From IMG/VR virus record IMGVR_UViG_2534682297_000002: a stretch of 4,966 nt of DNA; one strand, written 5' to 3'. Of this stretch, positions 1 to 135 are shown piece after piece. Source of the DNA: a virus. Its lineage: Duplodnaviria; Heunggongvirae; Uroviricota; Caudoviricetes. How positions within the stretch are numbered: position 1 is the first letter of the stretch; every line of letters starts with the position of its first letter. The position numbers were made by a program, and so were the translations under genes. The notes under the pieces are model-generated. The model had not been told where the DNA came from, did no database searches, and worked only from the letters and a program-made list of their open reading frames with translations.

Positions 1-135
1 ATCAAATAAGTTGCGTATCGGCGTTTTTCAGCGGTATCAAATGAAATGCAAATCGGTATCAAAAAAATCGCCGCGCTATATGCGGGCCTGTGGAGTTCAG
101 CCGATCTGACTTATGTCATTACCTATGAAATGTGA
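1..135 (+). CDS. 3' end of tail terminator (gpU-like) gene, partial; only the last ~17 codons (85..135) are clearly gpU-like, upstream part divergent or disrupted
   Basis: Frame 1 ending at TGA 133..135 translates as ...[17 protein letters not shown], matching the lambda gpU C-terminus as I recall it, with the same 7-nt gap to the V start as in lambda. The same frame has TAA at 7..9, and translation of 10..84 ([24 protein letters not shown]) does not resemble gpU. Frame 2 is open from 2 to a TGA at 107..109. Confidence 0.4.
32..63 (+). repeat. Two copies of direct 10-mer CGGTATCAAA (32..41 and 54..63) in an AT-richer stretch
   Basis: Exact 10/10 direct repeat read from the sequence, 22 bp apart, flanked by T5 and A7 runs; function unknown. 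Confidence 0.3.

Follow-up and report, generated by a model that had tools for sequence, protein, structure and literature searches.

Why does the tail terminator gene U, at the edge of an otherwise lambda-like tail module, retain only its 3' end? The stretch of DNA analysed here, referred to as the window, comprises 4,966 nt; coordinates are 1-based on the strand given, and features were called from a list of open reading frames (ORFs) and from alignments. An earlier note, made from the sequence alone, had drawn attention to the first 135 bases, in which frame 1 encodes the C-terminus of gpU but also contains a TAA at 7..9, frame 3 has a stop codon at 42..44 and frame 2 is open up to a stop ending at 109. 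Translation reproduces all of this: apart from the TAA, frame 1 gives a 43-letter reading over window 1..138, and frame 2 is open from 2..106 with its stop codon at 107..109, the corresponding ORF being 11..109. Three explanations had been offered, namely a recombination joint with another gene that ends in frame 2, a nonsense or frameshift lesion in U, and an engineered junction. The features of the window, all of which lie on the plus strand, are as follows.

1..80, plus strand: to judge from its sequence, the right end (attR, last 80 nt) of an Sp18-type Mu-like prophage, ending ...CGCCGCGCTATA-3' at base 80
1..5, plus strand: ATCAA, by its sequence pattern a candidate R3-like third repeat copy, clipped by the window start
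33..41, plus strand: R2-like GGTATCAAA repeat, 22 nt from the R1-like copy
55..63, plus strand: R1-like GGTATCAAA repeat, putative core of the terminal transposase-binding site, with TTGATAC at 19 nt from the terminus on the inward-reading strand
81..84, plus strand: TGCG, U nucleotides 342-345, predicted to be the right-hand copy of a 4-bp target-site duplication
81..135, plus strand: 3' remnant of U (lambda-type tail terminator), 55 nt, with the last 17 codons from 82 and the stop codon at 133..135
143..883, plus strand: major tail protein V, intact, 246 aa, preceded by a ribosome-binding region at 136..142; gene order as in lambda
899..1321, plus strand: tail assembly chaperone G, an ORF whose coordinates match called genes (PF06894/PF06223) in locus L005
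1303..1737, plus strand: tail assembly chaperone T, the -1 frame partner of G, an ORF likewise matching the PF06894/PF06223 genes in L005
1730..4279, plus strand: tape measure protein H, intact, 849 aa, with the exact product on record
4276..4605, plus strand: minor tail gene M, an ORF placed by the gene order in L005 and lambda
from 4605 (to 4966), plus strand: minor tail gene L, start only, running off the window end; an ORF placed by the gene order in L005 and lambda

A protein identical to the V product occurs in 7207 blocks of a public assembly collection, and an exact copy of the H product is found in 3517 blocks of the same collection; the contigs that were read include O157:H7 genomes. 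G and T overlap at 1303..1321 within 899..1737, which is the layout expected for the programmed -1 frameshift of lambda G/G-T. A scan for promoters and terminators over 1..400 detected nothing.

The position of the break was determined by ungapped comparison with intact U, anchored on the stop codon. Bases 1..80 match at 21 of 80 positions, which is the random level, whereas 81..135 match U of the O157:H7 prophage at 55 of 55 positions and U of lambda at 54 of 55. The break is therefore as sharp as the earlier note had described it, and far beyond chance. Over 81..4966 there is not a single mismatch in 4886 nt to the lambda-like prophages of O157:H7-type genomes in which U is intact and encodes 131 aa (loci L008, L010, L013-L016, L019 and L020). 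The alignment with lambda itself, which had been proposed as a check, places 80..4966 on lambda 8892..13790 at 96.2% identity. The description of the rest of the window as near-identical to lambda thus holds roughly, but the exact counterpart is the O157:H7 prophage. Intact U matches PF06141 over residues 1-129. In the window, in contrast, the part colinear with the gpU family profile of about 130 residues is confined to the last 17 codons: residues 25-41 of the frame-1 peptide match positions 117-133 of the 133 positions of PHROG 37 ('tail terminator'), and 1..135 as a whole are not colinear with an intact gpU-family gene.

Within this region several details had been read correctly from the letters. 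The gpU sequence quoted in the earlier note (...YDYRRDDD followed by AGLW...) agrees with the alignment to intact U. The U stop codon at 133..135 and the V ATG at 143 leave a 7-nt spacer, the same as in lambda (8947/8955). The gpU C-terminus is indeed encoded in frame 1, although it does not start at 85: gpU-derived codons begin at 82 (GCG, Ala115) and gpU-derived DNA begins at 81. A boundary at base 69 was considered as well, because megablast matches to U began at this query position, and was rejected, since they reach it through a chance similarity between CGCCGCGCTA and CGGCGCGACGA and a 2-nt gap. The true boundary between Mu-like DNA and U is 80/81. U is not intact here; it is an interrupted gene of which a 3' fragment is left. 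The suspicion that U carries a lesion that makes the prophage defective was right in that U is broken, but there is neither a nonsense nor a frameshift mutation, as 1..80 are not homologous to U.

What, then, are bases 1..80? Megablast against 50,697 phage records yields no match to 1..68. A sensitive search of 5426 complete E. coli genomes with 1..84 finds 285 matching places in 233 genomes at 95-100% identity, of which CP101302 and CP062771 are 100% identical and 170 records match at at least 99%. The genes that adjoin these 285 copies vary and include ycjT, yoaF, citF, cas7e and ABC transporters as well as prophage genes, namely gpJ/TipJ, DUF1367 and GH25 lysozyme genes. Occurrence at many sites with differing neighbours is the signature of the end of a mobile element. 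In the loci inspected (CP101302 and RM8385) the matching segment lies directly downstream of com and mom, and in CP101302 it closes a 39,163-bp prophage. This prophage encodes a helix-turn-helix protein, a protein with a 'Mu transposase C-terminal domain', an AAA ATPase, Gam and Mor, in addition to Mu-type head genes, a contractile tail and an invertible tail-fibre region. The mom gene of this type of prophage is about 71% identical to mom of Mu, D108 and SfMu.

The end of the element can be placed to the base. Right-hand flanks were taken from the genome loci and, in addition, from IMG/VR and JGI metagenome sequences that contain the last 30 nt of the element without any mismatch. All 34 distinct flanks diverge directly after ...CGCCGCGCTATA, which corresponds to window base 80 (the terminal sequence is also given as ...GCGCTATA; the 3' terminus of the phage reads ...GCTATA). 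The switch from Mu-like DNA to U thus falls on the usual terminal base of the element, which is what transposition predicts and what random recombination or a chimera does not. Moreover, neither the upstream part of the frame-1 peptide nor the frame-2 peptide, a search of which against protein families had been suggested, matches any Pfam or PHROG family. In every related locus, bases 1..80 correspond to non-coding DNA downstream of mom. The frame-2 ORF is spurious, and both this ORF and the TAA at 7..9 are accidents of non-coding attR DNA. On sequence grounds we conclude that 1..80 represent the right-hand tip (attR) of a transposable Mu-like prophage of the Sp18 type known from STEC E. coli.

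The label 'Sp18-type' follows the literature: the 80 nt are shared without a difference by the ends of Mu-like prophages in STEC genomes that have this com-mom-attR layout, and it is papers on such phages that liken them to Sp18 of O157:H7 Sakai (described as similar to Sp18 in PMC10132054). Relatives of Sp18 include Phi804-3 of strain FRIK804 and Mu_JNE122137, which resides in the Stx1a phage LC727895. Sp18 itself is reported to be intact and efficiently packaged (PMC2669165).

Comparison of independent insertions defines the left end of the element as TGTAACCAGGTGAATCATTTGATACC... A left end at TGAGCG... (L004 6246) was rejected, since comparing two insertions shifts the end 95 nt further left to TGTAACCAGG. 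Read inwards, the motif TTGATAC recurs at each end; its distances from the terminus are 19, 41 and 76 nt on the right and 19, 114 and 166 nt on the left. In the same comparison the core motif of the MuA sites of Mu is found at 22, 127 and 167 nt on the left and at 22 and 44 nt on the right. The repeat arrays are inverted between the two ends and have a Mu-like spacing, which makes them putative transposase-binding sites. The resemblance to Mu (NC_000929) includes a pair of sites 22 bp apart beside the right terminus (R1-R2), three sites spread over about 170 bp at the left (L1-L2-L3), the gene order com, mom, terminus, the mom similarity given above and a left end that begins TGTA... In contrast, the end sequences of the two elements cannot be aligned, and the repeat core is TTGATAC here and CGAAA(A) in Mu.

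A further difference concerns the duplicated target. Duplications of 4 bp are found in all four of the related insertions for which both ends are available: TGCG in the ycjT insertion (L004 6151..45408, CP101302), GGCG in the yoaF insertion (L025/L003, RM8385), ACTG in the metagenome contig L054 (300..12824, QZLY01000953.1) and AGAG in LC727895 (L060/L059), where the depositors annotated it as a 4-nt duplication. Empty sites rebuilt with a single copy of the 4 nt are 100% identical over 140 nt to intact ycjT and yoaF. Since related insertions with both ends show 4-bp duplications, TGCG at 81..84 is predicted to be the right-hand copy of such a duplication. Mu sensu stricto (Muvirus) has 5'-TG...CA-3' termini and duplicates 5 bp, whereas the element described here has TG at its left and TA at its right terminus and duplicates 4 bp. 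It works like Mu, but it is not Mu itself. A search of the literature library used here returned no paper on 4-bp duplication by Mu-like phages.

The Mu-like ends in the metagenome contig L054 lie only about 12.5 kb apart, between the ACTG repeats, and L035 has the same right flank. In a BLAST comparison with the full prophage, all that is left of it are 2 kb at the left end, 1.1 kb at the right end and scattered segments of the tail region. The contig holds an internally deleted, mini-Mu-like derivative of the element.

Which event produced the junction in the window? What the sequence shows is that the Mu-like element, oriented as U and V are, is fused by its 3' terminus to U starting at nucleotide 342. 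Our main reading, to which we assign a probability of roughly 85%, is that an Sp18-type Mu-like prophage inserted into the U gene of a lambda-like prophage in an E. coli of the O157:H7 type, and that the window starts 80 nt inside its attR. The Mu-like transposase would have joined the 3' terminus of the phage to U between nucleotides 341 and 342. The Mu-like genome (c/A/B ... com, mom, attR) would share its orientation with U and V, with the whole prophage of about 39 kb lying upstream of the window except for the 80 nt that the window contains. With these approximately 39 kb in between, codons 1-115 of U and the head genes of the lambdoid prophage would lie apart from V-G-T-H-M-L. At the left junction one would expect ...CGCGACGATGATGCG joined to TGTAACCAGG... 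(the element side is also written TGTAACCAGGTGAATC), with TGCG duplicated, and this junction would encode a fusion of U(1-115) to 25 foreign residues, U(1-115)+CNQVNHLIPTRVLVKGGEITCKILK.

We searched for both predicted junctions and their products. Megablast with 1..400 did not recover the right junction from the 5426 complete E. coli genomes or the 50,697 phage records, exact pattern searches did not find it in the GTDB representatives, IMG/VR or the JGI metagenomes, and the junction-spanning ORF of 32 aa has no exact record. The loci returned for the exact V and H proteins carry, in every place, a U gene without the present junction. The DNA of the predicted left junction is absent from IMG/VR and the GTDB representatives. 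Finally, a collection of 15 billion proteins contains none of the U' fusion proteins that would result from a duplication of 3, 4 or 5 bp. The source genome evidently lies outside these collections.

That the left junction expected for a simple insertion (...GACGATGATGCG abutting TGTAACCAGG..., about 39 kb upstream) was not found in the collections searched would also suit a different scenario, in which the Mu-type transposition formed part of a rearrangement. In that case an adjacent deletion or inversion would have arisen, through replicative transposition or through recombination of one Mu-like copy with another, and neither the head genes nor the 5' part of U would be located at the other end of the element. 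Substrates for such an event are available, as some STEC genomes hold up to four copies of the Mu-like end and one to three Mu-like phages are found per STEC genome (PMC10132054). However, a missing left junction is what one expects of a source genome that the collections simply do not contain, and the related prophages for which both ends were examined are all simple insertions with a 4-bp duplication. We therefore consider a rearrangement unlikely. A simple insertion is the preferred reading because every related prophage with both ends examined is one; for the window, this would place the rest of U and the head genes at the far side of the element.

Still less probable is that the junction is an artefact. 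A chimera formed during assembly or sequencing could have fused two repeats, the Mu-like end and a lambdoid tail module, and both partners are indeed repeated elements in STEC genomes; the junction is, moreover, unique among all collections searched. Alternatively, the flank could come from the variable host DNA that Mu-like virions package beyond the right end of the phage genome; in Mu, virions carry 0.5-3 kb of host DNA there. Yet the switch occurs exactly on the terminal base of the element, as it does in 34 independent insertions, which speaks against a chimera. The flank of 4886 nt is longer than the tail of host DNA usually packaged, and flanks that differ between virions would not yield a single assembled sequence. 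Together this makes both variants improbable.

The options of the earlier note, a lambdoid mosaic joint, a nonsense or frameshift lesion in a colinear U and an engineered (mini-Mu or cloning) junction, accommodate the stop at 7..9 in the U frame and the opening of frame 2 to 109 but can be dismissed as scarcely credible, since 1..80 lack homology to U, the peptide said to belong to another gene has no Pfam or PHROG counterpart and its DNA, which lacks phage megablast matches over 1..68, is a Mu-like terminus that is non-coding in all related loci, and this terminus is of the Sp18 type, strongly unlike the right end of laboratory phage Mu (a loose similarity at most) and not that of a laboratory mini-Mu.

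An insertion of this kind would have consequences for the lambdoid prophage. In the window the first 114-115 codons of U are replaced by Mu-like attR DNA, while 82..135 specify the exact last 17 residues of gpU (PF06141/PHROG 37) and the stop codon, followed by the normal U-V spacer and V. Going by established lambda biology, a gpU that lacks its last 16 residues would be non-functional, and tail terminator function would be lost. With 39 kb of foreign DNA between them and the late promoter, V through J would, owing to this polar separation, probably be poorly expressed. The lambdoid prophage would thus be predicted to be tail-defective unless it is complemented by the other lambdoid prophages of the strain.

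The same U gene has been hit by a mobile element in another genome. In CP017249.1 (a derivative of strain 86-24; L012 about 7483..9883), whose prophage shows 0 mismatches to window 81..4966, U is interrupted by a group II intron of about 2.4 kb that lies on the opposite strand (Rfam RF02012 and RF00029) and carries an RT/maturase/HNH ORF at 7554..9278. It differs from the Mu-like element in its nature and its size, in being antisense to U and in its position after about nucleotide 291 of the gene. It represents a second, independent mobile-element lesion of U.

Both the element and the phenomenon were known before, and the new target site is the sole addition made here. Sp18-type phages occupy variable chromosomal sites, which include sites inside resident lambdoid and Stx prophages; unlike the known sites, the target after nucleotide 341 of U in an O157-type lambda-like prophage was not found in the collections searched. 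The site of the Mu-like prophage differs between FRIK804 and Sakai, indicating strain-specific integration in O157:H7 (PMC7430833). In closed genomes of CC119 STEC, 6 of 10 Mu-like phages were located in mobile elements, several of them in Stx phages (PMC10132054). Likewise, the GenBank annotation of LC727895 and LC727881 describes a 'region of the inserted Bacteriophage Mu-like phage' inside Stx phages. It is about an even call whether the insertion in the window reflects a recent, strain-specific transposition by an active Sp18-type phage whose transpososome geometry is unlike that of canonical Mu (a 4-bp instead of a 5-bp stagger, TA instead of CA).

Among the genome copies, the Mu-like end abuts a resident-prophage gpJ/TipJ gene in CP027442 and CP038290, and a GH25 lysozyme gene in CP038423. 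In AP018796, CP027380, CP077588 and CP077499 it abuts a DUF1367 gene, which could be explained either by shared ancestry or by a preferred site. As many copies abut genes of resident prophages, insertion into lambdoid prophages appears to recur in STEC.

In an annotation of the window, a Mu-like attR end (1..80) and a pseudogene fragment of U (81..135) are the appropriate labels, rather than a novel ORF or a mosaic joint. The junction is a strain-specific marker and could serve for typing. The apparent anomaly at the start of the window is thereby explained as routine, since Mu-like phages of STEC often land in resident prophages. For the biology of STEC, it provides another case of prophage-prophage interference that is able to make a lambdoid prophage tail-defective.
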